Shown here one piece after another: positions 8,054 through 52,747 of a stretch of DNA of 64,000 nucleotides. Source of the DNA: Myxococcales bacterium. Its GTDB lineage: Bacteria > Myxococcota_A > UBA9042 > JABWCM01 > BTVJ01. The position numbers and the translations under genes were made by a program. How positions within the stretch are numbered: position 1 is the first letter of the stretch; the number at the start of each line of letters is the position of its first letter. The notes beneath the pieces were generated by a model. It did no database searches, was not told the origin of the DNA, and saw only the letters and a program-made list of their open reading frames with translations. Location: contig BTVJ01000032.1 of NCBI GenBank assembly GCA_045863395.1, forward strand, positions 18,159 through 82,158, in the 5' to 3' direction.

Positions 8054-8068
8054 GGCGCCCCTCCGCGC

Positions 8069-11344: not shown

Positions 11345-11358
11345 GACGCCCTCCGGTG

Positions 11359-32056: not shown

Positions 32057-32698
32057 TCAGGACGCGGTCGCCCACCACAGGGCGAGCGCCGCCAGGGTGA
32101 AGCCGCAGAAGACATCGCCCCGGCGCACGGCCCCGCGGACCTCCTCCTCGGTCAACGCGAGGCGCCGGACGATGCGCTCGTCGGGCTCTTCGTGGTCCCG
32201 CGCCCGCTCCGAGCCCAGGCGCACCAGCACGACTCGGATGGGGTGCATGCAGAACGTCGTGTTGGGGTTGCACCAGCCGATGGGAGTGGCCAGGTGTGGC
32301 TCCATGCCCGTCTCCTCCCGTGCCTCCCGAAGCGCCGCGTCCTCGCAGGACTCCCCGGGCTCCGGGAACCCTCGCGGGAGCTCCAGGCTCATCGCGCCCA
32401 GGTTCGACAGGTCCCCGGGAGGATACTGAGGAGTGCCTCCCGGGGTCAGGGCGGCGGGGCGCCACTGCTCGACGAGGACGAGGCGCCCATCCGGGAGCAC
32501 GGGCACGACGACCGCCCCGCTCGGCGGGTCCGCCCAGAGCGGGAGGTCGTAGCGAGGCTCCCCAGCCTCGTCGCAGGCAACGGCGTGGACGATGGTGCCG
32601 TAGGTCGGGTTCGCGAGCACGGCGTCTGGCGGGCTCGGGCGCCACCCAGGGTGAAATGGCGTGCGCTCCACCAGGGTCGACAGGGGACGGACCTTCAC
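32057..32698 (-). CDS. NUDIX hydrolase (213 aa)
   Basis: GTG start with GGGAGG 4 nt upstream. Nudix box GFPEPGESCEDAALREAREETG (Gx5Ex7REUxEExGU). Confidence 0.8.
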   Translation of the reverse strand: MKVRPLSTLVERTPFHPGWRPSPPDAVLANPTYGTIVHAVACDEAGEPRYDLPLWADPPSGAVVVPVLPDGRLVLVEQWRPAALTPGGTPQYPPGDLSNLGAMSLELPRGFPEPGESCEDAALREAREETGMEPHLATPIGWCNPNTTFCMHPIRVVLVRLGSERARDHEEPDERIVRRLALTEEEVRGAVRRGDVFCGFTLAALALWWATAS

Positions 32699-32725: not shown

Positions 32726-35700
32726 TCACAGGTACAGGACCAGCGGGCAGGCCTCGATCCGCTCCTGCGCCGACTCCTTCGACTTGCAGCGGGCGAGGTG
32801 CGCCTCGTAGACGGCCCGCGGCAGGTCGATGGGGCGGCCGATGGACGCGCGGACCCTCCGCAGGAGGCTTCCTGCCACATTCACCATCTCGGCGTCCAGC
32901 ACGGACCAGAGGGTCACGACCAGCGCGCCGCTCCCGGCCGCGATGAAGGCGCGTAGGAAACCGGACACTTCGCCACCGGGCGCGTCGGCTCCCTGGCCCG
33001 TGACGCACGCACCGAGGACCGTGAGCTTGTTGCGGGCGAGGCGCAGAGACGCGGCGATGTCGAACTGCGTGAGCACGTCTCCCTCCAACGCCAGGGCTGG
33101 GCCCAGGGCGTCGAGGCGGCGGTCCCAGAGGCCGTGGCCGGTGTAGACGAAGACCTCGGGGCGGGGAGCGGTGAGCCGTCCCAGGGTCGCTCGGCTGGCG
33201 GGACCGACGGGCCTGACTCGTGGCGCCCACTCCGGGAGGGTCCCCGCCCAGTGGAGGTCCTCCCGAGGCCAGTCGAGGCCCTTCAGCTCGCGCCCCGTGG
33301 TGTTCTCGTCGAGGAGCGCCAGCACGCACAGGTCGTCGCCCGGCTCGATGGTCTGCACACGGAGCAGGTGGCGGGACCGGCTCACGAAGGCGGCCGCGCT
33401 CACGGAGAAGCAACAGGGGAGGGATGCCGCCAGGGGCCACCTCGTCTTCGGCTCGAAGGCGACATGGAGCGGATAGCGGAACAGCTCGCCACAGGGGATG
33501 ATCACGAGCAGCTCCGGCGGAGCGGCACCTCCGCACACGTGCTTCCAGAGCGGCGCCAGCAGGTGATCGCTCATGGCCTGCGCGAGCTCGACCGTCGGAC
33601 CCGTGTCAGGGTCCGCCTGGAGGCGGCCCTGGTAGGCATCCCATGCGAATCTGACTGGTGCGAGCTGCAGGTCGTCCACAAACTCCATGCGGGCACCGCG
33701 GAACACGAAGGCACCCAGCGCAACTCGCTCTCCCTCGACATGCTCGAAGTAGCGGATCACTGCGACATCCGGGTGGTTCGTCGTGAAGCCGCGCACCGTC
33801 CGGCCCAGGTCTTCGTCATGGCCGCTGGTCGGGATGGGGTGGTTCAGCATCCACTGCTCATAGAAGGTACGGCGTTGCCCGATGGCTGCGTCGACGCCCG
33901 AGCCCGACACCCCGTCGGTCCGGCGCATGGTTCCCCGGCGCCGCACGCGCATTCCCTTCCTCTTCCTGGCGGGCTGCGAGACCTGGATGTCCGCGAAGAG
34001 AGGCACCTCCGGCAGCGCCGCGATGCCCTCGGCGGGCGCACGGCGAGAGGCTCCCTGCATGAGGTCAAGCAGCTCCCGGGCGCTGGCCTCCTCCACATAG
34101 GCGAGGGCGTCCTCCCGGCTCTCACCCACGGAGGGGACGCGCTCCGACCTGAGGGGGGCCCGGCGGAGGCTGGCCGCGACGGCCTCTCGATACACCGGCG
34201 CCACGTGGCTCGCGAGGGCGGCCTTGTGCTGGCCGACGGTGACGACCTTCCGCTGCGACTCGACCGTGCGCAGCCGCTCTCGCAGCCAGCGGATGCGGGC
34301 ACTGGAAACGTCATCGCCTTGTCGCTCCATCTCGGTGATCACCTTGTGGTAAGCCGCCAGCGCGAAGGTCTGGCGGTCCAGATCGAAGCCAGCCTGGGCT
34401 GAGGGCCGGGCGCGCGCCTCCTCGAGCTCATCCACGAGTCCCTCCACCAGCGCCCGCGCTTCACCGACATCGCCTTGAAGCAGCCGGATCTCCGCCAGGT
34501 TCTGTCGAGCGATGAGGCGCCCCCGGACCCAGGGGAGCACGTCGATGGACTCCCTGCACAGCCCTGCCGCCTGATCGAGGTGGCGGGACCTCTCTTCGCC
34601 GGACGACTTCTCCGCCCTCGACTTGTGCAGCCGCGTCTGATGGCCGAGCGCCTGCGCGAGCCGGTACGCATCTCCGTTGGCGCGAGCGATGACCTCTGAC
34701 CCCCGGGACCACGAGAGCGACAGCTCCTCGTCCGACGACGACAGCTCGTCGGACCCGTTGTGGTACAGGCTGCACAGGCCCCGGAGATGCTCGCGGTCCC
34801 TCGGAGACTCGGGGGGAGTGACCTCGCCGACTCGCAGCGCGGCAATTCCATGGAGATTGGCCACCCTGATCGCATCCTCGATGAGCGGTCGGTAGCGCTC
34901 CTCGGGCGGGCCAGGCGCGGTGCCGACCGTCCGCTTCTCCTGCGTGGCACCGCGCTCCAGGTTGCTCCTCAGGTCCGCCAGGCACCACCACAGGTCGTGC
35001 TCGACGGCGACCGTCACGGCACGCTCGAACGACCGCCGCCCCTCCGTATGGTCCCCGGCCCGGTAGCTGGCCTTGCCCGCGCCGTCGAACCACCGGGCCG
35101 CCGCGTAGGCGTGCCACTGGACGTCGGGATGCTTCGTATCCAGACGCTGTTCGAGGGACTCGGCCAGCGCCCGGGAGCGGTCGGCGAGCTGGAGCGCCTC
35201 GTGGTACTCGTAGGCGACGTCCGCGCTAACGATGCGGCACCACCACGCGCCCACCGCGCAGGCGAGCTGCTCCACGGGGTCCGACGGAGACCGAGGCAGG
35301 AAGGCGCCAAGCGATTCGAGGTGGCCAAGGCAGACGTGGTGGCGGTACTCCGTGTCGTAGACCGCGTCGAAGAGCTCGACCAGGCCTCGCACCCTGTCGC
35401 GCACGCCGGGGTCTCCGAGGTCGGTTCGGGCGGTACCAGCCAAAGCAACCGCTGGCGCGCTCGGGGGGAGAGGCGGCTGTCTGCGCGCATCCGCCCGCGC
35501 CGGCGGCTGCGTGAGCACGGAGGGAGACGACGAAGCCGCGTCGAGCGTGTCGACCACGGGGGCGCCGCTGGGGGGGGTCACGACGGCCCCCTGGTTCATG
35601 GCCACCGGGGGCTCGGGAAGCATCGGCTGCTCCTGTCCCGGCGACTTGCCCGGACGCGGCGTCTTCGGGCGGGCGCCGGCGACGGTCGGACCACGCGACG

Positions 35701-36499
35701 AACCCGGAGGTGTCGGTCCGCACCAGGCGTCCAGATGCTCCGGAATCAGCGCCGGCCCCGGACGCCCCTTCTCCACGTCGCCATCTCGCCACTGACTCAC
35801 GGTGGGTGCGCCGAAGAGGGAGCGCGCCAGAGACTCGTAGAGCTCATGGGACCAGCCGCCGACGTTGCCGTGCACCAGGTCGTTGCGGCGATTGCGGAAG
35901 GTCGCGATCACCTCGCTGCGTCGCTGAACGGATCGCGGCCGGGCGAAGAAGTCGCGACGAAACCACTGCTCCAGGGCAGCCAACTGCTCCGCGGTGCCCT
36001 TCTTGCGGACGGCCCCGTAGGCGATCTGGAGGGACTGACAGGACCCGAGCGTGGGTCTGACCCGGCCCTCAGCGAGAGCCAGGAGCTCCCTGCGGTGTAT
36101 GTCCTTGATCGGAGCCTCGGCGAGCAACCTGCCGTGCTCCAACGCGGCGGGGACGAGCATGTCTCGAAGCTGCCTCTCGGTGGCGGCGCAGAGGAACATG
36201 GCGCACGCCATACGGAGCGGATCGAGGCTCGCAGCGGAGGCGGGCTGTCTCATCAGCCCCTCCAGGGCGACGACCACACCGAGGTGACTCACGACGTCCT
36301 CGGAGAGCTCCTTTGGGAAGGGCGCGGCCGGGGCCCCCCGTCGGGTGAGGCGCCTTCGGCTCGCTTTCCCCATCAGCACGGCGTTTTTCGCGCGAAACGC
36401 GGCGAACGCCTCCTCGAACTGGCGATCCTCCTCCTCGGCTGCTTGCGCCTCGCGCAGCAATCGAGCGTCGAGGTCTTCGCGGTCTCCTCTCCGGCTCAT
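32726..36499 (-). CDS. CHAT-domain (caspase-like His/Cys) protease with ~230-aa N-terminal domain, Pro-rich linker and TPR-like repeats (1257 aa)
   Basis: ATG at 36499 (plus CAT 36497-36499). C-terminal VFVYTGHGLWD (His) ... LTVLGACVTGQGADAPGGEVSGFLRAFIAAG (Cys) gives the CHAT/caspase dyad order. The central region carries tetratricopeptide-like repeats. Confidence 0.65.
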   Translation of the reverse strand: MSRRGDREDLDARLLREAQAAEEEDRQFEEAFAAFRAKNAVLMGKASRRRLTRRGAPAAPFPKELSEDVVSHLGVVVALEGLMRQPASAASLDPLRMACAMFLCAATERQLRDMLVPAALEHGRLLAEAPIKDIHRRELLALAEGRVRPTLGSCQSLQIAYGAVRKKGTAEQLAALEQWFRRDFFARPRSVQRRSEVIATFRNRRNDLVHGNVGGWSHELYESLARSLFGAPTVSQWRDGDVEKGRPGPALIPEHLDAWCGPTPPGSSRGPTVAGARPKTPRPGKSPGQEQPMLPEPPVAMNQGAVVTPPSGAPVVDTLDAASSSPSVLTQPPARADARRQPPLPPSAPAVALAGTARTDLGDPGVRDRVRGLVELFDAVYDTEYRHHVCLGHLESLGAFLPRSPSDPVEQLACAVGAWWCRIVSADVAYEYHEALQLADRSRALAESLEQRLDTKHPDVQWHAYAAARWFDGAGKASYRAGDHTEGRRSFERAVTVAVEHDLWWCLADLRSNLERGATQEKRTVGTAPGPPEERYRPLIEDAIRVANLHGIAALRVGEVTPPESPRDREHLRGLCSLYHNGSDELSSSDEELSLSWSRGSEVIARANGDAYRLAQALGHQTRLHKSRAEKSSGEERSRHLDQAAGLCRESIDVLPWVRGRLIARQNLAEIRLLQGDVGEARALVEGLVDELEEARARPSAQAGFDLDRQTFALAAYHKVITEMERQGDDVSSARIRWLRERLRTVESQRKVVTVGQHKAALASHVAPVYREAVAASLRRAPLRSERVPSVGESREDALAYVEEASARELLDLMQGASRRAPAEGIAALPEVPLFADIQVSQPARKRKGMRVRRRGTMRRTDGVSGSGVDAAIGQRRTFYEQWMLNHPIPTSGHDEDLGRTVRGFTTNHPDVAVIRYFEHVEGERVALGAFVFRGARMEFVDDLQLAPVRFAWDAYQGRLQADPDTGPTVELAQAMSDHLLAPLWKHVCGGAAPPELLVIIPCGELFRYPLHVAFEPKTRWPLAASLPCCFSVSAAAFVSRSRHLLRVQTIEPGDDLCVLALLDENTTGRELKGLDWPREDLHWAGTLPEWAPRVRPVGPASRATLGRLTAPRPEVFVYTGHGLWDRRLDALGPALALEGDVLTQFDIAASLRLARNKLTVLGACVTGQGADAPGGEVSGFLRAFIAAGSGALVVTLWSVLDAEMVNVAGSLLRRVRASIGRPIDLPRAVYEAHLARCKSKESAQERIEACPLVLYL

Positions 36500-36612
36500 C
36501 TTCCAGTCTCCCCAGGATCTGCGGATGCGGTGGCGGAGTCTCGGACCTCGATCCTCCCTGCCGCACCACCTTACGTCTTCGCCCCCACTTCCGGCAATCA
36601 CCCCGCTCCTGC

Positions 36613-39270
36613 CTATGCCCCGTCCCCATCCGTCACGCCGGGCCGCAGCGCGCCCGGGTCGTCGCGCACAGTGGCCGCCACGAGGTCGAAGAGTCGGTCG
36701 CTGCCGCCGGACACCGCGCGGAGCAGGAAGCGTCTGAACGCGCCTCGCTCAGCCGCGCGGCGCACCTTCTCCATGGACACACCCTGGTCGAGCAGCGCTC
36801 GCAGGGCCGGCCTGAGCAAGTGACGCGCGAGGCGCCGGGAACCGGCGGCGTGCGCATGCTCCAGCAAGGTGGTCAGGCCAGCCTCTCCGCGCACGCTCAA
36901 GTCGCGCGCGTCGATGCGGTCGAGGAGGTCCGCGTCCACCTGGAGCCGGGGCATTGCCAGGAGGAGACGCACCAGCGCCGCCGGCGCCACGCGCCCGAGG
37001 GCCGCGCGCTCGATGGCGTCCACTTCACCCGCGTGCTCTCCGGCGACCAGGCGCCAGCCCTCGGCCTTGGGCCAGCGGCTGGCCCTCGCACGCCACGCCG
37101 GGTCCGTGGAGGTGAGCAGGACGGCGAGAGGCACCACATCGAGCGGCGGGGGATCCGCCTCTCCCCACAGCTTCAGGGCGAGCCAGACGTGGGCTTCAGT
37201 GGACGCCGCCCGGAAGAGGTCGGACGCCGTGTGCGCCGCGCTGCCGCGGAGGGCGAGGAGCGGAGCCAGGATGCCTCTCGCGTCGTCCATGTCGAGACGA
37301 GGCAGAGCGGCGCCCCGCAGGCAGGCGACAAGGTAGGAGAGTCCCGGGTCCCCCACCACGCTCGCCGGGTCCACCTGCCTCGCCCAGTCGCGCGCACAGA
37401 GCAGGAGCTCCCGTCCACCGTCGGCCGCGGCGAGCAGATCCCGCGCCACTCCGCGATCCGCTTTGGCCCGCTCCAGGGTCCACTTGCGGCCGACGTCCGA
37501 CGCCGGGGCGCCACGCGATGCCCGCTCGCGCAGGAGGAGCCGGGCCCACGGATCACCGACCTCCGCGGCCACGCGGGCGCGCAGATCCCACACGTCCAGC
37601 TCACGCTCCACTGTGTGCCAGTCGCGCAGGAGGGCATCGATCATGGTCGCCGAGACGGGACCGGCCACACTCCGGGCCAAGGCGACGGCCGCCCGCGCCC
37701 CGTGGCGCTCCGGCAGCCGCGCGGCGAGCGCGCCCAGACCCACCGCCTCCGCCAGGCGCCAGGCACCCGTGAGGGACCCGCGCGACACGCCCAGGTCCAG
37801 CAACCGCGTGACCGTCTCCTCGTCTTCCGGGGCGAAGCACCGCGCCAGCTCCACGAGGTCTTCGGCGGCGGGCTCGCCATGCGTCAGCGCGCGCGCCGCT
37901 CGCCACGCCCCCGTGTCCAGCTCCGCGGCCCACGCCCGGTCGCTCCGCCGCCCGTGCTGGGACCGCAGCGCCGCCCACGCGAGGCGCCCCTGGGCCAGCT
38001 CTCTCCACCGCCGCACCCACTCCGCGTCCCCCGCGGCGGGCGCGGCGAGACCCTCCACCTGCCCCGGCGGCACGCGGTCCAGGAGCCGCGCCACGCGCTG
38101 CGCGGCCTCCTCCGCCGCGTCCAGGTGCTCGCTCCGGACGTCGTCGAGTAGCTCCGGCGCAGCGCCCGCGTGCACCTGCACCGTCCCCAGGAGCACGCCC
38201 AGCGCGCGCACGGACCGAGAGGTCTCCGCCGCACGGCGCCACGCCTCGGCCCACTCGGGTCCCCGCGTGCCAGCGAGCGCGGCCGCTCGCTGACCCCGGG
38301 GCGCAGTCGCCACCGCGTGGAGCGCGTCCAGGTGCAGCATGGTCACCTCGACGCGCGCCGCCGCTCCGCAATGGAGCGACCTGCGGAGCCCATCGATGTG
38401 GTCCAGGTCCTGGGCCAGCTCCGCGGCGCGCCTCGCGGCGACGGGCCATGGGTCGCCAGGCGAGAGCCGGAGCCCCCCCAGGGCAGCGTCGACGCGCTCG
38501 CACAGCTCCCGCAGGGTCGTCGCGCCCGCACCGATCCGTGCGACGTGCTCCGCGTAAGCAAGCCCTGGGAGCGCCGCCTCGTCCGCCCCGCGCAGCACAC
38601 CGTCGACGATGGATACTCCGGTGGCCACCGCCTCCCCGAACCCGATTGCCACCGCGTCCGTGACCCGCGCGAGACCAGCCCCGAAGGGCACCCTCCACGC
38701 CACTTCCCGGGGGAGGCAGGCGAGCACCACCGCCGTGCGCTCCAACTGCGCCTCGACCGCGCCCCGGTCCCGGATCCCCACGGCAAGCCCCGACGCCACC
38801 ACCGCCAGCAGCAGGCGCACCTGCTCCGCCCACCCATCGGGCAGCGCGATGTCGGTGGGGGACACCACCAGCGGGGGTGCGGCGGGGTCCACCACAACCG
38901 GAGGCTCCGGCGACAGCGGGACCGCGGGCAGCAGGGCGCGGTCCCACGCATCAGGCCGGCACACGCCGTAGTGCGCCTCCGTGTAGAGGCGTCCCGGCGC
39001 GCCCTCTCCGGCCTCCGAGCGCCCTCGGATGCGCCCCACCACCACCACACCCTCCACCGCGGCACCCACCACCCCACCGTCCGGCCACCGGTAGTGGTCC
39101 CACGTGAAGCCCGCCCCACCACCGAGGCCCAGGCGGTCGGGGCGGCACCACCGCACCACCTCTGCGGTCACGCCCGGGGACCGGACCGTGCAGCCGTGGT
39201 CGCACCCCGGGACGATGGGTCCCCGAGGGCTCTGCACCAGCTTTCCGTAGCGGACTTGCAGGAGCTCCAT
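36613..39270 (-). CDS. Hypothetical protein (885 aa) translationally coupled to the upstream GTPase
   Basis: ATG at 39270 (GAGGTG 4 nt upstream), 5 bp after the GTPase stop. A GTG at 39276 is an alternative start. Ala/Leu/Arg-rich helical protein without recognisable motifs. Confidence 0.55.
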   Translation of the reverse strand: MELLQVRYGKLVQSPRGPIVPGCDHGCTVRSPGVTAEVVRWCRPDRLGLGGGAGFTWDHYRWPDGGVVGAAVEGVVVVGRIRGRSEAGEGAPGRLYTEAHYGVCRPDAWDRALLPAVPLSPEPPVVVDPAAPPLVVSPTDIALPDGWAEQVRLLLAVVASGLAVGIRDRGAVEAQLERTAVVLACLPREVAWRVPFGAGLARVTDAVAIGFGEAVATGVSIVDGVLRGADEAALPGLAYAEHVARIGAGATTLRELCERVDAALGGLRLSPGDPWPVAARRAAELAQDLDHIDGLRRSLHCGAAARVEVTMLHLDALHAVATAPRGQRAAALAGTRGPEWAEAWRRAAETSRSVRALGVLLGTVQVHAGAAPELLDDVRSEHLDAAEEAAQRVARLLDRVPPGQVEGLAAPAAGDAEWVRRWRELAQGRLAWAALRSQHGRRSDRAWAAELDTGAWRAARALTHGEPAAEDLVELARCFAPEDEETVTRLLDLGVSRGSLTGAWRLAEAVGLGALAARLPERHGARAAVALARSVAGPVSATMIDALLRDWHTVERELDVWDLRARVAAEVGDPWARLLLRERASRGAPASDVGRKWTLERAKADRGVARDLLAAADGGRELLLCARDWARQVDPASVVGDPGLSYLVACLRGAALPRLDMDDARGILAPLLALRGSAAHTASDLFRAASTEAHVWLALKLWGEADPPPLDVVPLAVLLTSTDPAWRARASRWPKAEGWRLVAGEHAGEVDAIERAALGRVAPAALVRLLLAMPRLQVDADLLDRIDARDLSVRGEAGLTTLLEHAHAAGSRRLARHLLRPALRALLDQGVSMEKVRRAAERGAFRRFLLRAVSGGSDRLFDLVAATVRDDPGALRPGVTDGDGA

Positions 39271-39277
39271 GGGCACC

Positions 39278-40168
39278 TCACGCCGGCATGCAGAAGACGC
39301 CCTCGGCCTTGCCCGTGGCGGCGAACACGAAGGGGTCGAGCACCTGGAAGGGCTGCCAGAGAGCAGCCGCTTTGGGGAACCCGCAGGAGGGCGCGGTGTG
39401 CCTGAGACCGCCGGTCTGCGGGTTGAAGTTGGGCGCGCCCTCGGCGAACCCGAACACGGAGGTCCAGCAGACCCCGAGCAGGGTGGGCTTGCGGCAGAGC
39501 AGCTCCAGGGATCGGAGCCCGGCGGGCGCCATCAGGCTGCGCAGCACCGAGACGGGGTCACTGGAGCGCGCCTGGGAGAGCGCGCGTGGTCCGTGCGCCT
39601 GGAAGTGCTTGTCCGCCTTGGTCAGGCACACCACCACGCGCTCGAGGGGGGACTGGCGGCGCTGGATCACCTCCTCGAGCAGCGCCGGCAGCTCCACGAA
39701 GAACGTGGGCAGGTCCTCCGGGTTGGTCGGATCCACGCACAGGATGAAGCCCCGCGCGCGGGACAGCTCGGACAAGAGCCGCTCCCGGTGGGCGTCCTCC
39801 ACGTCGGCGTCCAGGGACGCACGGCCCACCTGAGGGAGCAGGCTCGCCCCCGGCCCATCCAGCAGCTCGAAGCGCGTCTCCGATGCGTCGGTCCTGCCGA
39901 ACAGCCGCCGGCGCGTCGTGCGCAGCGAGAAGGAGTACCGGCACACGTCGAGGGTGCCGTCGACCGGCGGCAATCCCTCCTGGCGCGTCAGCCCCACGCC
40001 ATAGGTCCGCAGGAGCTGCATCATCTCCTTGTTGGGCGTCACGATGTCGTGGGACAGGTCTCCTTCCTGCGCCACGTTGCGCGCGGCGATCTGCAGCGCG
40101 CCCACCATCATGGTCTTGCCCGACTTGGACGGGCCGAGCACTCCGTATCCGCGCGACTCCAGCGCCAT
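39278..40168 (-). CDS. Ras/Arf-like small GTPase (296 aa)
   Basis: ATG at 40168 with GGAGGAGG RBS. G1 GPSKSGKT, G3 LLDGPG, G4 CLTKAD. Confidence 0.7.
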   Translation of the reverse strand: MALESRGYGVLGPSKSGKTMMVGALQIAARNVAQEGDLSHDIVTPNKEMMQLLRTYGVGLTRQEGLPPVDGTLDVCRYSFSLRTTRRRLFGRTDASETRFELLDGPGASLLPQVGRASLDADVEDAHRERLLSELSRARGFILCVDPTNPEDLPTFFVELPALLEEVIQRRQSPLERVVVCLTKADKHFQAHGPRALSQARSSDPVSVLRSLMAPAGLRSLELLCRKPTLLGVCWTSVFGFAEGAPNFNPQTGGLRHTAPSCGFPKAAALWQPFQVLDPFVFAATGKAEGVFCMPA

Positions 40169-40198
40169 GGGGCCTCCTCCGTGGGTCAGGGGTGGGGG

Positions 40199-40954
40199 TC
40201 AGCGACGGTCCAGCGACCGCAACGACCGCTTGATCTCCTCCAGCAGGTCGATGGCCCGGGAGAGACCATCGTCGATGACGGCCTCGTCGCCGCCCTCCGC
40301 CGGAAGGAGGCGGGGAACGAGGTCCTCCACGACCTCGCCTATTCGCAGAAGCTCCGCCCGGGTCATGTCCACGCTCCCTGGCACTCCCCGGCGACGCCTG
40401 AGCGCGGCGGTGACGTCTCCGCGCAGGCGGTGCATTCGCCGGTGGCACAGATCGCGGATCCCCATCAAGTGCGTTCGGACCGGGTGCTGGAGGCTCAGAC
40501 TCGCCCGCGCCGCCAGCAGGGCGTCGTCCACGCGCAGCCATGTGCGTACGAGCGCGCCCAGCTCAGTGCGGAGGCCCTGCTGGTCACGCCACCACGGCGG
40601 AAAGAAGATCACCCAGGCGACCGCCCGATCCTCCTCGGAGTCTCGCGGGCTCGTGCGGGTGGTCAGCGCCGCCCAGGTGATCAGGCCGGCGCACAGCGTG
40701 ACGCCAGCGAGCCAGACCCAGGGCCACTCGCCGATGAGGCCCACCGACACGAGGACGACGCCCGGAGACAGCCCGACGAGGATGCGCCCGAGCAGATATC
40801 CGAGGAGCATCGCCTTGAACCCCGCGTCGCGTGCCGCGCGGCTCAGCTCCCGCCACGCGGTCTCGATACCTGCCGAGACCTGCGCGAGCACGGTCATCAG
40901 CCGCGCGGCCAGGTCGTTTGCCAGCCTCACCAGCGATCCGAGCCAGTCTCCCAT
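40199..40954 (-). CDS. Polytopic membrane protein (~251 aa)
   Basis: ATG at 40954 with AGGAG 7 nt upstream. The ORF-track start at 40978 lacks an RBS. 3-4 TM helices (LLGYLLGRILVGLSPGVVLVSVGLIGEWPWVWLAGVTLCAGLITWAAL). Confidence 0.5.
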   Translation of the reverse strand: MGDWLGSLVRLANDLAARLMTVLAQVSAGIETAWRELSRAARDAGFKAMLLGYLLGRILVGLSPGVVLVSVGLIGEWPWVWLAGVTLCAGLITWAALTTRTSPRDSEEDRAVAWVIFFPPWWRDQQGLRTELGALVRTWLRVDDALLAARASLSLQHPVRTHLMGIRDLCHRRMHRLRGDVTAALRRRRGVPGSVDMTRAELLRIGEVVEDLVPRLLPAEGGDEAVIDDGLSRAIDLLEEIKRSLRSLDRR

Positions 40955-41008
40955 CGGTAACTCCTGTCCTGTGAGCATCGCTGTCGGTCTCGCCCACCGC
41001 CGTGCCAG

Positions 41009-41698
41009 CTACTTCTCTCGCCTCTGCGCCCTGTCGAGGATGGCGCTCAGCGGATCCGCCGCCAGGGACCCGCGTTCCCCGGCCAGCTCCGCCAGCAGCG
41101 CGTCGGCCTCGTCTCCGCCGCCACTCTCGCCCGGGAACGCCCAGGGGTCGGCGTCCAGGTCTCGCCACGCCTCCTCTTGAGACTCCAGCCGCTCCACCCC
41201 TTCGAGGAGCGGGCCCCTCCAGTCCGCCTCGCCGACCCGCCCCAGGCCGTCCGCGGACTCACGCAGGTGGAACGCGGCGCCGGCCCGCGCCTCTCGCGCG
41301 TCCGCCCACGCCACCTCCAGCTCCGCCTGCCGCGCCTCCGCGTCCAGCGCGTCGAGCTGCCGCTCCAGGTCTGCGACCCGGGCCCGATGCTCCCGGGCCC
41401 GCGCCGCCAGCTCCGCCGCGCGCCTCCGGTGCACGACGGCCCGCTCCGCGGCCAGGCGGGCCGCCACGGCGTCTCCTTGGTCAAGAGCGGTGCCCGCCGC
41501 GGTCCGCTGAACCCCCTCCTTGTGGCGTTCCGCGTCCAAGTCCCGCTCCACCAACGCCAGGTGCGCCATGGCCACGGCCACATGCTGGGACCCGTCGCGG
41601 TGCCGCCCCCTCACCTCCTCGACGAAGCGCCGCGCCCGCTCCCGCGGGTCCACCACGGCCTTCCTCCGTCTCCACCACGCGGCGACTCGCCTCCACAT
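41009..41698 (-). CDS. PspA/IM30 (ESCRT-III-like) family coiled-coil protein, tentative (229 aa)
   Basis: ATG at 41698 (plus CAT 41696-41698) with AGGAGG 8 nt upstream. MWRRVAAWWRRRKAVVDPRERARRFVEEVRGRH...LALVERDLDAERHKEG... is a PspA-like amphipathic N-terminus plus extended coiled coil. Assigned from compositional and positional resemblance only. Confidence 0.45.
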   Translation of the reverse strand: MWRRVAAWWRRRKAVVDPRERARRFVEEVRGRHRDGSQHVAVAMAHLALVERDLDAERHKEGVQRTAAGTALDQGDAVAARLAAERAVVHRRRAAELAARAREHRARVADLERQLDALDAEARQAELEVAWADAREARAGAAFHLRESADGLGRVGEADWRGPLLEGVERLESQEEAWRDLDADPWAFPGESGGGDEADALLAELAGERGSLAADPLSAILDRAQRREK

Positions 41699-41978
41699 GG
41701 GTCGTCCTCCTGGGTCACGGCTATCGGAGAGACTCGACCGCAGCGCATCTGACACGAGTCTCACGTTCCGACCGGGAAGGCGGACATCTCCGTCGGCACC
41801 GGGCCGGACGGCACTGAGCCGAACACTCCGGACGAAGGAGAGCCCTGGTCCCGGCTGCGCTGACAGCGTTCGGCGAACGAACTTCACGGTTGACAATCCG
41901 AGCCAATCGCGCTGTGCTACGGCTCCGACGAACCCACCCCGGGGGACTCAGCAGCCTACTTGCATGGAGGGAACCACC
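41699..41978. promoter_or_regulatory. Divergent promoter region between the PspA-like gene (minus) and the YbjN-like gene (plus); candidate -35 TTGACA
   Basis: ttcacggTTGACAatccgagccaatcgcgctgtgctacggc at ~41880-41920. GGAGGG RBS before the ATG at 41979. Confidence 0.3.
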
Positions 41979-42635
41979 ATGGCGACGACAGTCCGCGAGA
42001 TCGCAGGCTTCCTGGACGAACGCGGGATCAAGTACGACATCAAGGGAGACTCCCGCATCGTGACCGGCTTCCGCACCAAGTCCTTCACCAACGTGGAGGG
42101 CGAGAAGTCCATCGTGGTCGTGATCCTGCTCCAGGAAGATGGCCGATACTTCCAGGTGTACGCGCCTCTGGCCATGCGCGCGGAGGGGCCCCACCAGGAG
42201 GCCTTCATGAAGGCCTGCATGGCCGTGCAGTGGAAGACCAAGCTCATCCAGTTCGAGATGGATCCCCAGGACGGCGAGATCCGCCCGACCGTGGAGTTCC
42301 CCCTGGAGGATGCGCCCCTCACGGCGGCCCAGCTCCACCGGAGCATCGGGGGCCTGATCACGCTGCTGGAGGAGTACTACCCGGTGCTGGAGAAGGCCCT
42401 GAAGACCGGGCAGGTCGAGTTCCCCGAGGAACCCCAGGACCGCATGATGCGCATGCTCCAGGAGATGATGAGGACGGTGGACCCCCTCCGGATGCAGCTC
42501 GCGGCGACGGTGGCGCGCATCACGGAGCTTCGTGAGACCGGCGGAGATGCCGTGACCATCGGAGTGCTGGAGCGGGAGGCGCAGCGGCTCCAGGCGGCCA
42601 TCGCTGCCTCGTCGGGGGGACCAACGGAGCTATAG
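41979..42635 (+). CDS. YbjN-domain (putative sensory-transduction / chaperone-like) protein (218 aa)
   Basis: ATG at 41979 with GGAGGGAACCACC upstream. MATTVREIAGFLDERGIKYDIKGDSRIVTGFRTKSF...YFQVYAP matches the YbjN-family pattern. Internal to the ORF-track ORF 41520..42635. Confidence 0.55.
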   Translation: MATTVREIAGFLDERGIKYDIKGDSRIVTGFRTKSFTNVEGEKSIVVVILLQEDGRYFQVYAPLAMRAEGPHQEAFMKACMAVQWKTKLIQFEMDPQDGEIRPTVEFPLEDAPLTAAQLHRSIGGLITLLEEYYPVLEKALKTGQVEFPEEPQDRMMRMLQEMMRTVDPLRMQLAATVARITELRETGGDAVTIGVLEREAQRLQAAIAASSGGPTEL

Positions 42636-42686
42636 GGACGCCGGTGAAACCGGGGGGGGCATCCAACAGCATCGTGAGGAGTCCAC

Positions 42687-45600
42687 GTGGCCGAGATTCA
42701 CGCAACGACCCGGAGCATCCTCGCCTGGGCCAAGCGCGCGGCGCTGGCCGCCAGGCGCGACTCGCTGACCCTACCCGACCTGCTGTGCGGCCTCTACGCC
42801 GTGCGGGAGGACACCACCGTGGCGCCGCTGCTCGCAGGGCGAGCGCAGCACTGGGCCGACCCAGTGGTCTCTGGGTGGGAGAGCGCGGCCGGAGTCGACG
42901 AGACGGACCGCAAGTTTCCCCTGGACGACGTGGTCCGAGACTTGGTGCGCCGGGTCCACGACAAGGACCCGGCGCTTCCCCCGGCGCTCCTGCTGGAGGA
43001 GCTGCTCAGGCACGGCGAGGCCTTCCAGCGGCCGGCGGAGCGGGCGCTCTCGCCCATGCTCCGGCGCCTGGACGAAGCTCGGGATCTGGCGGACCGTCTG
43101 GTCGCTGCGCTGAAGGAGCGCGTCTTCGGCCAGGACCAGGCGATCCGCGCCCTGGGGGAGGCCGCCTTCCACGCGACCGTCTCACCACCTTCCCAGGGTC
43201 CCCGCGGCGTGCTCACCTTCCTCGGGCCCTCCGGCGTCGGCAAGACCTGGCTCGCCGAGTGCTTCGCCGAGGAGCTGGCGCGCATCCGGGGTGAAGCCAT
43301 CGGCTTCCGCCGGTTCGACATGGGCACCTTCGGTGGCCCACAGAACTTCGAGCAGCTCTTCGGCACGGAGCAGTTCTACAAGGGGAGCCGCCCGGGGACC
43401 TTGACCGGGTTCGCGAAGGACACCCCCCGCGCCGTCATCGTCCTCGACGAGCTGGAGAAGGCCCACCCGACGACCCTGCAGGCGCTGTTGGCGGTGTTCG
43501 ACAAAGGAGAGGTGGTCGACAAGGCGCTGGAGCGCCCCGTGGACTTCCGCGGCACGTGGTTCATCGTGACGACCAACCTGGGGCAGCAGCTCTTCGCGGG
43601 CCCCAACAGCGCTGGCGTGCTCCACGCCGGCGGCGCGTCCCCGGAGCTGGTCTACGACATCCTGACCGCGCGGGGCGAGGCGGGCGCAGAGGGCTCTACG
43701 CCCGGCCTGCCGCCCGAGCTGGTCTCGCGGTTGGCGAAGGGAGGCGCCGTGGCGCTCGGTGCGCTGGAGACACGTCACACCTTGCGCATCGTGGGGCGGG
43801 CGTGCGAGACGGCGTCGGACACCCCCAGCGTCCGCCCGTCCCGCGATGCGGCGTTCATGCTCCTCCTGTCGCTGCTCCCCCAGCTCGACGCCCGCCGGGT
43901 GGCCGCCCGCACCTCCACCTGGGCCTCGGAGCTGGTGCGCGGGGCCCACCAGGTGTGTCGCAGCGAGCTGCACGCCGCCAACCCCGAGCGCCTGTCGGTG
44001 CGCGTGGAGGTGGTGGGCGAAGCCGCGGCGTGGCTGCGCGCGCGCCTGGAAGCCCCGAGGCTCCGGGTGCTGGTCGTCGACGACGGAGACGATGTGCGGC
44101 GCCTCGTCGCGGCGGAGCTGGGGGCAAGCGTCGAGGTGCAGCGAGCCACGTCCGGGGAGGCGGTTGCCCTGGCCCAGCGCCTGCGGCCCGATGTGGTGCT
44201 CCTGGACCTGTGCATCGACCAACCCCAGAGCAGCGCTGTGGTCACGGGCGGCGACGCCGTGCTGGAGGCGCTGCGCACAGCGCTGCCCTGGCTCCCCGTC
44301 GTGCTCTTCAGCGAGAACGTGGATGGGCGCGGCGCCTTCGAGTCAGTCGTCGCGCGCGTGCTCGCACGGGGCGGCGCCCGCGCCTTCATCCCGCTCCGCC
44401 GGGACCACACGGACCCGCTCGCCGCCGAGGATCTGGTCGCGCGGGTGCGGGCGGTGGTGGACGATGTGCTGCTCGACCGGGTCCTCCGCGAGCAGGTCCG
44501 GGCCCACAAGGCGGTGCGGCTTCGGACGGAGTTCGCGTGGGACGCCGGGGCCACCGAGGTGGTCGCCCGCATCGTCGGGGTCTCCGAGCAGGTGGCCATC
44601 GCCGCTGCCGACCGCTCCGCGTCCATCCGCTTCGCCGGCATCCCCACCGACCGCCTCGACGACCTCGTCGGGCTGGAGCGCGCGCGGCGACGCCTGCGCC
44701 AGGTCGTGCGCTGGCTGTCCGACCCGAGCACCCTCGAAGCCTTCGGCGCACGCCCGCCGCGGGGCTTCTTGTTGGCAGGTCCTCCCGGGACGGGAAAGAC
44801 GATGCTCGCCCGCGCCCTGGCCGGCGAGGCGGGGCTGCCGTTTCTGGCCATGTCGGCCGGCGAGCTCCAGTCCAAGTGGGTGGGGGAGTCGGAGGAGCGC
44901 ATCCGCGAGCTCTTCCAACGCGCCCAGGCCTACGCCCCGGCCATCGTGTTCATCGACGAGATCGACGCCGTGGCGGGGCGCCGGGGCGAGGTCGCGACCC
45001 ACGCCCACTCGGTGCTCAACCAGCTCCTCGCGTGCATGGACGGCTTCCAGGTGGCCGACCGCTCGGTGTTCGTGCTCGCCGCCACCAACCACCCCGAGGG
45101 GCTCGACCCCGCCATCCGGCGCCCGGGGCGCTTCGACGAGGTCATCGCGGTGGAGCGACCCAACGCGGCCGCCCGGCAGACCTTCTTCGAGCGCCGCCTG
45201 GCCCCCCTCGACGTGAGCGGGGCCGATCTGCCCCGGCTGGTGCGTGCCACGGCCGGTTTGACTCCGGCGGAGCTGGACCGCATCGCCCGCGAGGCGGCCT
45301 ACGCGGCGGCGGCCGACGGGCGGCAGAGACTGGAGGGAGCCGACCTCCTCGACGCCGCCCGCCTGGTGCGCTTCGGCGCCGAGCGAGAGGACCTGCAGGT
45401 GCGCCCCGACGAGCTGCGCGTGACCGCCTGGCACGAGGCGGGCCACGCGGTAGCCCACCTGACCCTGCTCCCCGATGATCCCATCGAGCTCCTGACCATC
45501 GTTCCCAATGAGCGGGGCGCCCTCGGCTTCCTGGCATCGCAGCGGGACGAGGCACGGCACGACCTGACGCGGGACCGGGTCCGGCGTCAGCTGGTCGTCG

Positions 45601-45935
45601 CACTCGCTGGGCGCGAGGCCGAGCGCCGCCTGGGCGGCGACGACGCATTGACCGCGGGCGCCCGCAGCGACCTGGAGCAAGCGACCCGCCTCGCGGCGGC
45701 GGCCGTCGGGGAGTGGGGCTTCGACGAGGCGGTGGGCCCCCTGTTCGCGCCGGCCCTCGGAGACCCGGCCCTGGTGCGACGCCGCGCCCGCGTGTGGCTC
45801 GCAGAGGCAGCCCAGGCGGCGAAGGCGCTCCTCGACGAGCGCCAGGACCTCGTCGCGGCGCTTGCCGAGGCGCTGCTCGAGCGCGAGTCCCTGGACGGGG
45901 CGGCGGTGGCGGAGGTAGCGGCGGAGGTGCGGTAG
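42687..45935 (+). CDS. Multidomain AAA+ unfoldase-protease fusion: Clp-N-like domain, ClpB/ClpA D2-type AAA+ module, CheY-like receiver (REC), FtsH-type AAA module and M41 zinc peptidase (1082 aa)
   Basis: GTG at 42687 with GAGGAG 6 nt upstream. [14 protein letters not shown]...[51 protein letters not shown] and [10 protein letters not shown] match ClpB D2. [52 protein letters not shown] is REC. [70 protein letters not shown] is the FtsH AAA module. [16 protein letters not shown] is the M41 HExxH motif. Confidence 0.8.
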   Translation: [1082 protein letters not shown]

Positions 45936-46107: not shown

Positions 46108-47451
46108 TCAGAGTGGCACCGAGAGGGGCTCGCCGCCCGGTGTCGAGCCGAGGCGTCCGGGCGCGAAGAGGCGCAGGACGGCTTGCGCGTCGGGCGCCTG
46201 GTCGCCGAGCCGCGACCGCAGCCGCGTCGCGCAGGCTCCCGCGAGCGACGCGATCAGCGCCTCGTCGCCCGCCTCCAGGGCACGCGGCGAGAACCAGGCG
46301 GCCTCGTCGAGCAGCGCGAGGGTCGCCTCCCGGGCGCTGGTGTCCTCGCCAGGGCTGGCGTGCAGCAGCTCAGTGCGCAGGGCCGCGACGTCTCCGCCGG
46401 CAGCGCGCACCTCGCCGCGGACGGACAACAGCCGCGCCACCTGGGACGCGCCGCAGGGCAGCCCCAGCGCGGCGAGGGTGAGCGCGGCGACGGTGAGGGG
46501 GAACCGCTCCGGGGCCGGGCCGTCGGGCACGCACCAGGCGCCCTTGGGCTTGATCCGCAGGTCGTTCGCCTCCTCGTCGCGGACCACCTCGCACAAGCGC
46601 GGCACCGACAGGGGGATGGCCTTGAACCCCTTGGACTTGGCGAACCCGTGGTCCGCTGGCATGAACGCCGGCTCCAGGAGCCGTATCGCTGCCCCGATCT
46701 TCGCGAGGCGCGGCGTCGGGTCTCCGGCCAGCACAAGAGCCTCGATGGCCCACCGCATCAGGCGCACCGCGTCGCCGGGGGTGCGATCCTCACTCGCGGG
46801 GGCACTCGGGGCCGTGACATCCGCGGCCGCGGGCGCCCGATCCCGCTGCGGAGCCGCAGCCACCGGGTCGGCCTCGGCCACGGGCGCCGGCACCGCGGGC
46901 TCCGTCTTCGCCCGCACGGGCCGCTCCGCCAGCGACTCGGGCAGCACGTGCAGCGTGTCGCACCACACCCGCACGTTGCTCGCGACCGTCCCCTTGCGGG
47001 CGACCACCTCGACGCGGCGGCCGTGCTCCCGCAGCTTCTCCATGAGCGGAGTGAAGTCGCTGTCGCCCGTGACCAGCACAAAGGTGTGCAAGTGGGGCCG
47101 CGTGAGGAGCAGCTCCATGGCGTCCACGCACATGCGCATGTCCGCCACCTTGCGGCCCGCGCCGCCCCACGCCGTGGCGTCGACCATCCCGATGCCACGA
47201 CGCGCCAGGGTACGCCGCGCCTCCTGGAATCGCCCCCAGTCCGCGTAGGCCCGCATGACGCCGGCGCGAAGCCAGCGCACCAGGTGGTCGAGCAGCTCGG
47301 CCCCACCCCACCGGGCATCGGGCACCAGGTTCTCGTAGTCGATGAGCAGGGCCGTCCCGGCCAGCTCGCGCTGGACCTCGCCCGCTCCCTCGTCCGCCCC
47401 CCTCACCCCCTCGATGACGCTCAGCCTGTCTCCCTCACCGCGCTCTCGCAT
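46108..47451 (-). CDS. NYN (LabA-like) ribonuclease-domain protein with C-terminal extension (447 aa)
   Basis: ATG at 47451 with GGAGG upstream. ALLIDYENLV...VDAMELLL...TFVLVTGDSDFTPLMEKLREHGRRVEVV is the NYN/PIN-like acidic-residue pattern. Confidence 0.72.
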   Translation of the reverse strand: MRERGEGDRLSVIEGVRGADEGAGEVQRELAGTALLIDYENLVPDARWGGAELLDHLVRWLRAGVMRAYADWGRFQEARRTLARRGIGMVDATAWGGAGRKVADMRMCVDAMELLLTRPHLHTFVLVTGDSDFTPLMEKLREHGRRVEVVARKGTVASNVRVWCDTLHVLPESLAERPVRAKTEPAVPAPVAEADPVAAAPQRDRAPAAADVTAPSAPASEDRTPGDAVRLMRWAIEALVLAGDPTPRLAKIGAAIRLLEPAFMPADHGFAKSKGFKAIPLSVPRLCEVVRDEEANDLRIKPKGAWCVPDGPAPERFPLTVAALTLAALGLPCGASQVARLLSVRGEVRAAGGDVAALRTELLHASPGEDTSAREATLALLDEAAWFSPRALEAGDEALIASLAGACATRLRSRLGDQAPDAQAVLRLFAPGRLGSTPGGEPLSVPL

Positions 47452-47582
47452 GGCCGTCCTCCGGGTTGGTGTCGTGAACACCCCCAGAGAGGCGCAAGCG
47501 GAGTCGATCTGACACGGACGGAGAAGGCTCCCAGCAGGATCGTTCCGAGGATGGACGCCGCGATGGCGCCGGGGGCTGCCAG

Positions 47583-49796: not shown

Positions 49797-49805
49797 GGCG
49801 TCTCC

Positions 49806-51326: not shown

Positions 51327-51873
51327 GCGGAGGCGCCCGCCGTCCAGGGAGGACCCGGGCGGGTGCGGATCGAGCGGCAGCGCCAGCGGGCTGCGAGCGT
51401 GGCCGTGGGTCAGGGCGAGGGCGCGGCGGCCGGGGGCGAGGGCCCCCGAGAGCGTCGCAGCGGGGCCCGCCCGCTCGGCCTCATCGGTGCAGACCAGGGC
51501 GTCGCCTCGAAGCGACGAGGGTGTCCACCACGCGGGAGGCGGGGCTGTGCGGGTCGCGGGCGGGGTGGGTCATCGGCGGCTCCCGGGTGGATGGGCCGGA
51601 GCAGTGGCCCGCTCCGTGGCTGTCGAGGTGTCCGTGCTCCCGTGGATCATCGCAGATCTCCCGTCCTCTCGGGGTCACCTTCGCAGCCTGGCTCGTGCCC
51701 CCCACCCAGTCAGAATCTCGCGTGATCGGGGCTTCGCCCCGAGCCCCACCAGGGGCCGCTGACGCGCCCCCTGGACCCCACGGGGGGCGGCTCCGTCGTG
51801 AGATCGCGCCGGCGTCGCGGTCGCTGGCGCTCCGAGGTGAGTCGCGGAGAACCCAGGTCAAGGGCCCAAGGGT

Positions 51874-52662: not shown

Positions 52663-52747
52663 TCCGTCTCCTCTGGTTACCGCCCCGAGGTGCTCTACCT
52701 CACGCTGCCTTGGTCCAGGACTCCGCCCGCCGGGATCCCACGAGCCA

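Follow-up and report, generated by a model that had tools for sequence, protein, structure and literature searches.

A candidate four-gene GTPase switch cassette with a PspA-like protein and a large partner of DENN-like predicted fold in a Myxococcales conflict island

The DO-GTPases are members of the TRAFAC family that occur singly or as paralogous pairs followed by GAP1, are often linked to the membrane and are combined with variable effectors, which include caspase-superfamily peptidases, FGS domains and calcineurin phosphoesterases (Kaur et al. 2020, eLife, PMC7159879). A DO-GTPase gene has also been reported in psp-type operons, where it was linked to membrane stress (Ravi et al. 2024, PMC11237479). 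DENN modules were at first held to be specific to eukaryotes (PMC3521125) and were later found in Asgard archaea, in which an operon combines a Roadblock protein, a Rab-like GTPase and a DENN protein (bioRxiv 10.1101/2020.10.19.343400); DENN-like folds of bacteria have received only a passing mention (PMC13392464). Here we analyzed a string of minus-strand genes in a 64,000-nucleotide (nt) stretch of a Myxococcales bacterium (assembly GCA_045863395.1, contig BTVJ01000032.1, positions 18,159 to 82,158), which is referred to as the window. The string encodes a PspA-like protein, a membrane protein with two transmembrane segments (2-TM), a P-loop GTPase and a large partner protein, termed BIG, followed by a CHAT protease, a NUDIX hydrolase and an FGE-sulfatase-domain protein (Table 1). 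The initial annotation had read the first six of these genes as one signal-activated protease module. We consider, with moderate confidence, that the genes from 41698 to 36613 on the minus strand act together as one functional unit, a membrane-directed GTPase switch cassette of four genes within a conflict (defence) island. Our best reading, which is drawn by analogy, is that this cassette may be a rare, unannotated variant of the GTPase-centric conflict systems, distinguished by a new family of partner proteins and by a PspA/2-TM arm; its proposed function is outlined below.

The GTPase and BIG are a coupled pair, as had been proposed for the GTPase and its 885-amino acid (aa) neighbour. The two genes are adjacent in all 11 independent loci of relatives (12 with the window) that are readable past the GTPase; besides the window, the adjacency is seen in L001, L003, L004, L005, L010, L011, L012, L013, L014, L015, L019, and L020. 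The arrangement is direct in six of these loci and in the window, with overlaps of 4 nt between the GTPase and BIG genes in L001, L003, and L013; a second GTPase gene lies between them in three loci, and a second GTPase gene plus two small genes in another three. Since the PspA and 2-TM genes are confined to the window's subfamily across these contexts, it is the GTPase, or GTPases, and BIG that constitute the invariant unit.

The family is sparse in sequence collections. A cluster search (5.8 billion), which was limited by its word index, returned 5 clusters of GTPase homologues when a single sequence was used and 16 when a profile was used, and the single-sequence search with BIG returned 3 clusters. 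An exhaustive search with a BIG profile among 1.84 billion representative proteins gave approximately 137 clusters at 50% identity (E ≤ 1e-3), with lengths of mostly 900–1000 aa. Ten members were examined for their names: these either had no name, were called "hypothetical protein", or owed their name solely to a fused WG repeat. Organism names were available for three of them, which came from metagenome-assembled genomes of Gemmatimonadaceae and deltaproteobacteria. A pattern scan of 185,579 species genomes found 2 loci only, scans of metagenomes with the GTPase and BIG patterns confirmed nothing, and a tblastn search of plasmids with BIG gave no match.

The loci can be grouped by gene order. 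Type I (PspA, 2-TM, GTPase, BIG) comprises the window, L006/L007 (84–97% identical), L001 (a Myxococcota contig, 41–56%), and L004 (42–48%), with L003 as a partial case. Type II, found in L012, L015, L010, and L005, is an operon of about ten genes that ends with an AAA ATPase, Fer4_12, one or two GTPases, and BIG. Its full order is proteins of ~840, ~510, ~150, ~250, ~160, and ~475 aa, an AAA+lid_6 ATPase, Fer4_12, the GTPase(s), and BIG, with most of these proteins matching no family. This operon seems to be a further, so far undescribed system with the GTPase–BIG pair at its core. Type III (L014, L019, and L020) consists of proteins of ~1090 and ~770 aa, GTPase 1, GTPase 2, a multi-TM protein, a protein of ~85 aa, and BIG. 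Other contexts are L011, with two GTPases and BIG, and L013, with the GTPase–BIG pair beside CRISPR adaptation genes. In L013 (7760–15828), the pair is followed with 4-nt overlaps by a gene for a 108-aa protein and Cas2, and then by genes for a reverse transcriptase and a Gam-like protein, with a gap of 2 nt before the Cas1 gene. The pair and the CRISPR adaptation module seem to be united in a single operon, and no CHAT, PspA or 2-TM gene is present in L013. Multi-TM proteins are found in the L010, L012, L014, and L019 types, and a HipA gene adjoins the L014 locus. Past BIG in L001 (14158–18057) are genes for a 330-aa protein without a family, a vWA protein (228 aa), and a 673-aa calcineurin-like phosphoesterase (Metallophos), the commonest effector type in the GAP1-N1 systems of DO-GTPases (Kaur et al. 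2020, PMC7159879).

The extent of the cassette was suggested by a comparison with L006 and L007, two near-identical metagenome contigs. Nucleotide identity to these contigs is 95–99% both on the side of the divergent YbjN-like gene (42000–43000) and in the 5' part of the CHAT gene (35650–36600), and 73–94% from ~41950 to ~36650, that is, from the region upstream of the PspA gene to the BIG stop codon. The left edge is abrupt, with identity to L006 falling from 0.99 (42100–41951) to 0.79 (41950–41801). Synonymous divergence (dS) from the close relatives was 0.35 for PspA, 0.28 for 2-TM, 0.24 for the GTPase, and 0.45 for BIG, versus 0.055 for the N-terminus of CHAT, for which a 272-aa segment was compared, and 0.066 for the YbjN-like protein. 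Because dS rises as a block across the four genes and is low in both flanks, these genes form one evolutionary unit. Furthermore, because dS itself is raised, allele exchange is likelier than relaxed selection, and the cassette looks as if it had been swapped between near-identical strains. The ratio of nonsynonymous to synonymous divergence (dN/dS) was 0.06–0.37 across all six compared genes and 0.09–0.37 for the cassette genes and the CHAT segment, and these are therefore genes under purifying selection and not chance open reading frames (ORFs). A search for repeats at the cassette ends gave GC-rich chance matches only and no flanking repeats.

Six minus-strand genes had been called in the string, and all were borne out by the ORF lists, by a third-position GC of 0.81–0.93 across the string genes in a window of ~72% GC, and by the Pfam matches. 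The NUDIX gene is a real gene on the same strand, although it lies outside the interval then given to the string, which started at 32726, and the FGE-sulfatase gene, ~15 nt past NUDIX on the same strand, had been missed. In the order from PspA to FGE, the intergenic gaps are 30, 30, 7 (or 1), 113, 27, and ~15 nt. The gap between the GTPase and BIG is not 5 bp as had been stated: 7 nt separate the GTPase stop from the ATG of BIG, or 1 nt from its GTG. An AGGAGG ribosome-binding site is located 7 nt ahead of the PspA ATG. No sigma-70 consensus site was found in the cassette upstream region, and promoter and terminator scans of the string performed no better than on shuffled sequence.

Table 1. 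Positions of the gene string and of selected neighbouring genes in the window.
Feature	Coordinates	Strand	Remarks
Upstream non-coding region	41699..41951	-	Between the PspA gene and the divergent YbjN-like gene; the left boundary of the divergent block falls within it
PspA/IM30 (ESCRT-III-like) protein, 229 aa	41009..41698	-	Pfam PF04012, E 3e-11
2-TM membrane protein, 259 aa	40199..40978	-	Hydrophobic hairpin (Kyte-Doolittle); no family match
P-loop GTPase, 296 aa	39278..40168	-	Intact G1/G3/G4; possible distant DO-GTPase2 relative (sub-threshold)
BIG partner, 885/887 aa	36613..39276	-	No family
BIG N-terminal α/β domain, aa 1–270	38467..39276	-	AlphaFold2 model; DENN-like fold
BIG C-terminal α-solenoid, aa 277–887	36613..38448	-	AlphaFold2 model
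CHAT (caspase-like) protease, 1257 aa	32726..36499 from ATG; to 36601 from GTG	-	Pfam CHAT E 3e-18
NUDIX hydrolase, 213 aa	32057..32698	-	Pfam PF00293 E 1.4e-11; intact Nudix box
FGE-sulfatase-domain protein, 352 aa	30983..32041	-	Pfam PF03781 E 2.8e-43; seventh gene
NYN RNase-domain protein	46108–47586	-	The same run (46108–60683) includes a 737-aa protein without a family
Ser/Thr kinase–FGE-sulfatase fusion	49806–51326	-	
Second kinase	51874–52830	-	
vWA protein	53684–55477	-	
STAND-like ATPase	59040–60683	-	

The GTPase had been described as Ras-like with full G1, G3, and G4 motifs. The motifs are present in the window (G1, GPSKSGKT, 40112–40135; G3, DGPG, 39848–39859; G4, TKAD, 39611–39622), together with a G5-like TSVFGF at 39446–39463, and G1, G3, and G4 are kept in 22–25 of 25 relatives. 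Across these 25 sequences the family motifs are GPxxxGKT for G1, DxPGG for G3, (C)LTKAD for G4 and [ST]S[VA][FY]GF for the G5-like element, and a C-terminal WxPxxVxxPF motif is kept that is specific to the family. The Ras-like part of the description did not hold, as no Ras, Arf or Roc family of Pfam was matched by six members at E ≤ 1. The spacings between the motifs (92 residues for G1–G3, 79 for G3–G4, and 53 for G4–G5) exceed those of Ras, whose compact G domain has ~180–200 aa, and long insertions thus lie between the G motifs. The labels of a Ras-like protein and of an MglA paralogue were rejected because of this lack of matches, the length of ~300 aa and the insertions, so that the protein is not a housekeeping paralogue of MglA or SofG, an identity that had been considered at the outset. 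The only recurrent Pfam signal among the six members was DO-GTPase2 (PF19993), which was matched by five of them, all below the cut-off and with a best E value of 1.9e-5, and which was also the only family better than E 0.05 for the window GTPase; PF19975 was matched by one of the six (E 0.0086). The GTPase profile found no relative among the PDB sequences. The GTPases of the window, L001, L003, L004, and L013 have 294–303 aa, with P0154 (408 aa) left out, have no N-terminal extension able to hold zinc ribbons, and the GTPase has no Gln after DxPG. Tandem GTPase paralogues are encoded in L010, L011, L012, L014, L019, and L020. The second GTPase of L010 (10873–11754), L012 (10936–11832), and L014 (5146–5985) keeps the P-loop and DxPGG and has TMAE, SKAE, and SMAE, respectively, as G4; because of this degenerate G4, the second paralogue may have lost its guanine specificity.

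BIG matched no Pfam family, and GAP1 and DENN were absent at E ≤ 5 for five close members and at E ≤ 2 for 37 diverse members. A search of the PDB sequences with the BIG profile likewise gave no relative. The AlphaFold2 model of the full-length protein, which was made with 56 homologues (pLDDT 92.3), has an α/β domain at aa 1–270 and is all-helical from aa 277 to ~880, and its matches to the PDB were weak and of a generic HEAT/ARM type (karyopherin-β2 and CAND1, E ≥ 0.015). When the N-terminal domain was modelled alone from a 90-sequence alignment (pLDDT 97.5, pTM 0.94), its secondary structure followed the order β-β-α-β-β-β-α and then β-α-β-α-α-β-β-β-β-α-α, and this predicted order is consistent with the DENN arrangement of a longin-like lobe and then an α/β core (PMC3521125). 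In a Foldseek search of the PDB with this domain, the best four matches were the guanine-nucleotide exchange factor (GEF) domains of DENND1B and DENND1A with Rab35 (3tw8_C and 6ekk), with E values of 1.1e-3 to 9.1e-3, probabilities of 0.85–0.98, and TMq of 0.37–0.41; the top match was 3tw8_C (E 1.1e-3, probability 0.98, TMq 0.41). The next matches were DENND10 (8p0v_M, TMq 0.40) and chains of GATOR1/SEAC over ~120 columns. The first 200–270 aa, corresponding to the N-terminal domain, are the most conserved part of the BIG family, in which G11, K12, G19, E88, R96, G163, P189, and Y241 are invariant or nearly so. The solenoid region is 81–86% identical to that of L007. BIG and PspA diverge fastest in the cassette (dN 0.09 and 0.13, versus 0.02–0.03 for the other two genes), and this is weak evidence for the solenoid as a sensor, because solenoids and coiled coils may tolerate more substitutions. 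The DENN-like domain was also observed outside BIG: several proteins of ~345 aa (L018, 6001–7038; P0049–P0051, P0059, P0062, and others) consist of a ~60-aa N-terminal extension and this domain only, and it lies inside longer proteins in P0047 (aa 538–755) and P0083 (aa 379–587).

At the head of the cassette, the initial annotation had placed genes for PspA-like and membrane proteins, and this holds in the window's subfamily (L006, L001, and L004). The PspA_IM30 match reached 43.7 bits against a Pfam cut-off of 33.9 and covered profile positions 21–161 of 220, and phmmer gave a weak match of aa 27–206 to the solved Vipp1/PspA chain 6zvr_B (E 0.012). PspA orthologues occupy the same position in L006, L001, and L004, and PspA is the fastest-evolving gene of the cassette (79.5% aa identity to L006, dN/dS 0.37). 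The 259-aa protein has an N-terminal helix, a two-helix hydrophobic hairpin at approximately aa 55–106, and a helical C-terminal part with an FFPPWW motif, which is predicted to be cytoplasmic. Its Kyte-Doolittle segments are kept in the homologues of L001, L003, L004, and L006, those of L001, L004, and L003 being 36–50% identical to it, and the protein gave no match in Pfam, NCBIfam, PADLOC or PHROG. The order of PspA and 2-TM is the same in L006, L001, and L004, the L007 contig begins within the 2-TM gene, and L003 has the 2-TM gene with a sigma-70-region-4-like protein at the PspA position.

Downstream of BIG, the CHAT protein has a ~240-aa helical N-terminal extension, a Pro-rich linker, a helical middle, and the C-terminal CHAT domain (PF12770, aa 1005–1275 in the 1291-aa numbering). 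The motifs YTGHG (33131–33145) and LGACVTG (32996–33016) probably contain the His and Cys of the catalytic dyad; the aligned CHAT protein of Embleya has YAGHG and VGACLAG. The TPR ascribed to this protein could not be upheld, as the only match was to TPR_19 at E 0.46, and the N-terminal 280 aa had no relative among the PDB sequences. Within the extension, RNDLVH (aa 205–210 of the 1257-aa form; 35870–35887, minus strand) fits the Rx4H motif of the HEPN RNases, but because the extension has no Pfam or PDB sequence match, this is a motif-level lead only. The Nudix box of the NUDIX hydrolase, GFPEPGESCEDAALREAREETGM at 32303–32371, fits GX5EX7REUXEEXGU. The FGE domain of the seventh gene has a paralogue fused to a Ser/Thr kinase further along the window (Table 1).

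The CHAT and NUDIX genes, and perhaps the FGE gene, are an adjacent, independent two-gene module. A homologous pair is found on plasmid NZ_CP108778.1 of Embleya sp. NBC_00896 (Actinomycetota), in which the CHAT homologue is 34% identical over aa 370–1257 of the window protein (E 5e-126) and the adjoining NUDIX homologue is 31% identical (E 7e-15). As in the window, the plasmid genes lie side by side, but there they are divergent, and the Embleya CHAT protein is without the ~370-aa N-terminal extension. Within 8 kb of the Embleya pair, the annotation shows no member of the cassette, and no PADLOC model matched either pair. Ten distinct loci are readable beyond BIG, and CHAT directly follows BIG in two of them, the window type (the window and L007) and L019, and not in L001, L003, L010, L012, L013, L014, L015, or L020. 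Neighbourhood conservation of the GTPase–885-aa pair with CHAT had been named as a check, and it thus holds for the pair, with the window's type of CHAT following BIG only in the window and L007. The L019 CHAT protein shows no BLAST similarity to that of the window and has a signal-peptide-like N-terminus and a hydrophobic C-terminus; it was rejected as evidence of a link because of this lack of similarity, its apparent location outside the cytoplasm, and its absence from the sister loci L014 and L020. CHAT–NUDIX was likewise rejected as part of a conserved unit, in view of the divergence break at the BIG stop, the Embleya pair, and the lack of CHAT in most loci.

How the cassette might operate can be outlined as follows. 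The GTPase and BIG would form a complex, in which the DENN-like module of BIG would contact the switch regions of the GTPase and set its nucleotide state, either as an exchange factor or as a GTPase-activating protein (GAP), with K12, E88, and R96 in the longin-like lobe as candidate catalytic or contact residues and with the solenoid as a scaffold or sensor surface. Once bound to GTP, the complex might use the 2-TM anchor to gate how PspA polymerizes at the inner membrane, in a manner analogous to LiaI–LiaH and PspM–PspA, and the output could be either to protect or repair an attacked membrane or to alter the membrane deliberately as an abortive response. It is also conceivable, though we think it rather doubtful, that this is a true bacterial fusion, in Myxococcota and Gemmatimonadota, of a DENN-type regulator with an α-solenoid that together with its own GTPase controls a PspA (ESCRT-III-family) polymer on a membrane anchor, and hence a prokaryotic counterpart of the eukaryotic GTPase–DENN/longin–solenoid logic of membrane remodelling in the form of a mobile defence or repair cassette.

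Several observations weigh against a membrane-directed switch with a DENN-like regulator in a defence cassette. The DENN-like assignment of BIG was reached from the fold alone, with borderline E values, a TM of ~0.4 and 10–12% identity; the 90-sequence BIG profile found no DENN or longin protein among the PDB sequences at E ≤ 10, Pfam searches with 37 BIG members gave no DENN or longin match at E ≤ 2, and the short 345-aa DENN-like form of L018 has no neighbouring GTPase. The match of the window GTPase to DO-GTPase2 scored 21.5 bits with a cut-off of 27 and involved only profile positions 108–174, and no Glu reaches 85% conservation anywhere in the 25 GTPase sequences, in which Walker B reads hhhhDxPGG. 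Apart from marginal matches, PADLOC and PHROG gave nothing for the four cassette genes. Furthermore, the PspA and 2-TM genes are absent from the other operon types, so that the output of the switch is not fixed, the direction of control from the switch to PspA is a conjecture, and a defence role is something that we infer from context only.

If the string from PspA to NUDIX or FGE were one six- or seven-gene system of the abortive-infection type, PspA would sense membrane stress and the GTPase–BIG switch would activate CHAT, with NUDIX and FGE as accessory or effector proteins. All of the genes are on the same strand with gaps of 7–113 nt and no terminator-like site between them, CHAT is kept past BIG in L007, and a CHAT gene also lies past BIG in the distant L019. 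In addition, caspase-superfamily peptidases, FGS domains and calcineurin phosphoesterases are found among the effectors of DO-GTPases (Kaur et al., PMC7159879), and vWA and Metallophos genes are located past BIG in L001. However, CHAT is absent past BIG in the eight loci named above, the L019 protein, with its signal-peptide-like N-terminus and hydrophobic C-terminus, is unrelated by BLAST, and the divergence break falls at the BIG stop, which leaves CHAT in the flank of 97–99% identity. The Embleya pair is without nearby cassette genes, BLASTP among the window proteins detected no domain common to BIG and CHAT, NUDIX or FGE that could serve as an adaptor, and the largest gap, 113 nt, lies between BIG and CHAT. 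We thus judge a single system to be quite unlikely, and the idea that the GTPase switch drives CHAT and NUDIX was not sustained: the signal-activated protease model is unsupported as it was stated, because of the distribution of CHAT, the Embleya pair and the lack of a shared domain. A weaker idea, suggested by analogy, is that CHAT–NUDIX may be a variable effector that is loosely linked to the cassette, as in the DO-GTPase systems.

The four genes could also be a lineage-specific housekeeping module for envelope stress of the Psp type, in which the GTPase and BIG merely tune PspA and the 2-TM protein and no conflict is involved. The PspA_IM30 match lies above the Pfam cut-off, and 2-TM anchors of PspA homologues, such as LiaI and PspM, are well established in Psp biology. 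All four genes are under purifying selection, and the DO-GTPase in psp-type operons has been tied to membrane stress (PMC11237479). This explanation appears unlikely to us nonetheless, since the spread of the cassette is sparse and patchy, with 16 GTPase clusters among 5.8 billion in the word-index-limited search and 2 loci in 185,579 species genomes, the cassette looks swapped between near-identical strains, the operons that contain the GTPase–BIG pair differ greatly, with CRISPR adaptation genes and a HipA toxin among the neighbours, and the window is dense with conflict-type genes. That there is no functional unit at all, and that chance neighbours in a gene-dense, high-GC genome were combined with a coincidental resemblance of folds, would be in keeping with the many long ORFs expected in high-GC genomes and with the borderline DENN match, but it is highly improbable given that the gene order is kept across loci at 30–56% protein identity, that the GTPase and BIG genes overlap by 4 nt in L001, L003, and L013, that the four genes diverge together as a block, and that they are under purifying selection.

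The surroundings of the cassette contain further genes of interest. Divergent from it on the plus strand are a gene for a weakly YbjN-like protein (41952–42635, E 0.0012), which is 99.5% identical in L006, and a gene for a 1082-aa fusion protein (42687–45935), in which two AAA ATPase domains are combined with an M41 (FtsH-type) peptidase and which also has a weak match to a receiver domain. These are followed by a minus-strand run of conflict-type genes (46108–60683; Table 1). Together with the AAA–M41 fusion and the giant Tubulin_2 protein described below, this run makes up the conflict context of the cassette. On the other side of the string, the plus-strand segment 18714–22876 encodes an M48 peptidase-domain protein (596 aa) and then a 918-aa TraG/VirD4/HerA-like ATPase (TrwB_AAD_bind, DUF87). 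Five very large co-directional genes on the minus strand (1842–16912) encode proteins of ~1417, 729, 1277, 820, and 1022 aa, among which a Tubulin_2 domain (E 1.3e-23) was found in the 1277-aa product (8072–11902) and a DUF6782 domain, a putative metallopeptidase, in that of 1417 aa. Genes with tubulin domains recur in the GAP1-N2 systems of DO-GTPases (Kaur et al. 2020, PMC7159879); the five-gene cluster itself yielded neither a GTPase nor a GAP1.

If the four-gene cassette is read correctly, it contains an unannotated GTPase–partner pair that would work like the DO-GTPase–GAP1 switch with a different partner, and it places a bacterial GTPase beside a DENN-like fold. The PspA polymer would possibly be under the control of a nucleotide switch, and the cassette would offer a compact four-gene system in which to ask how the assembly of PspA is triggered. 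The main interest is that a possible DENN-like regulator, a GTPase and an ESCRT-III-family protein occur together in a bacterium. The long same-strand string, for its part, splits into two independent modules, and block-wise divergence is a simple way to locate the boundaries of modules in such strings.

Known systems resemble the cassette in different respects. As in MglA–MglB of Myxococcus, a bacterial GTPase gene adjoins that of a presumed regulator in a myxobacterial host; however, the cassette GTPase has no Ras-family Pfam match, its partner has 885 aa as opposed to the ~160-aa Roadblock protein, and the cassette is patchily distributed and not part of the core genome. No Roadblock gene was found near the GTPase in the window. 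The two-lobed N-terminal domain of the BIG model recalls the DENN regulators (DENND1A/B–Rab35, and the longin GAPs of the folliculin and GATOR1 type), with GTPase-bound DENN GEFs as its best PDB matches, and the BIG gene adjoins that of its presumed GTPase as in the Roadblock–Rab-like–DENN operon of Asgard archaea. In contrast to the DENN regulators, BIG has no sequence-level similarity to DENN or longin (TM ~0.4), it fuses a 600-aa α-solenoid, its GTPase is not Rab- or Ras-like, the host is bacterial, and the GEF or GAP activity of BIG is only predicted. With the Psp and Lia modules (PspBC, LiaI–LiaH, and PspM–PspA), the cassette has in common a PspA/IM30 gene directly upstream of a small 2-TM gene, and some psp-type operons are known to include a gene of the DO-GTPase family (PMC11237479). 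It differs from them in lacking PspF, PspB, PspC, LiaF, and Toastrack, and in a 2-TM protein that matches no known anchor family (PspF, PspB, PspC, LiaI/F, and PspM gave no Pfam or NCBIfam match for this protein or its neighbours). The cassette is also rare and seems to be mobile, and the GTPase–BIG pair to which it is tied can occur without PspA.

The cassette was also compared with the models for described defence systems. In PADLOC-DB v2 at E ≤ 0.01 there were two marginal matches, DndD to PspA (E 0.004) and PDC-S07 to NUDIX (E 0.0091), and PADLOC, NCBIfam and PHROGs together gave only generic or marginal matches for the PspA-position, 2-TM, GTPase, BIG and CHAT proteins. In the DO-GTPase–GAP1 systems, as in the cassette, the GTPase is single or has a tandem paralogue and is encoded immediately upstream of a large multi-domain partner, TM components are frequent, and the neighbours are variable and effector-like; DO-GTPase2 is the nearest Pfam family of the cassette GTPase, and both belong to conflict islands of multicellular-type bacteria, here a member of the Myxococcales. 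The differences are that the DO-GTPase2 match is below the Pfam cut-off and the defining Walker-B glutamate is missing, that the GTPases of the window, L001, L003, L004, and L013 have no extension for zinc ribbons, and that BIG matches none of GAP1-N1, N2, M, and C (E ≤ 2, 37 members). Neither GASH (N1 type) nor FNIII repeats (N2 type) had a Pfam match in the window genes or in the neighbours of L001 and L003, and in the cassette PspA and the 2-TM protein stand in for these components.

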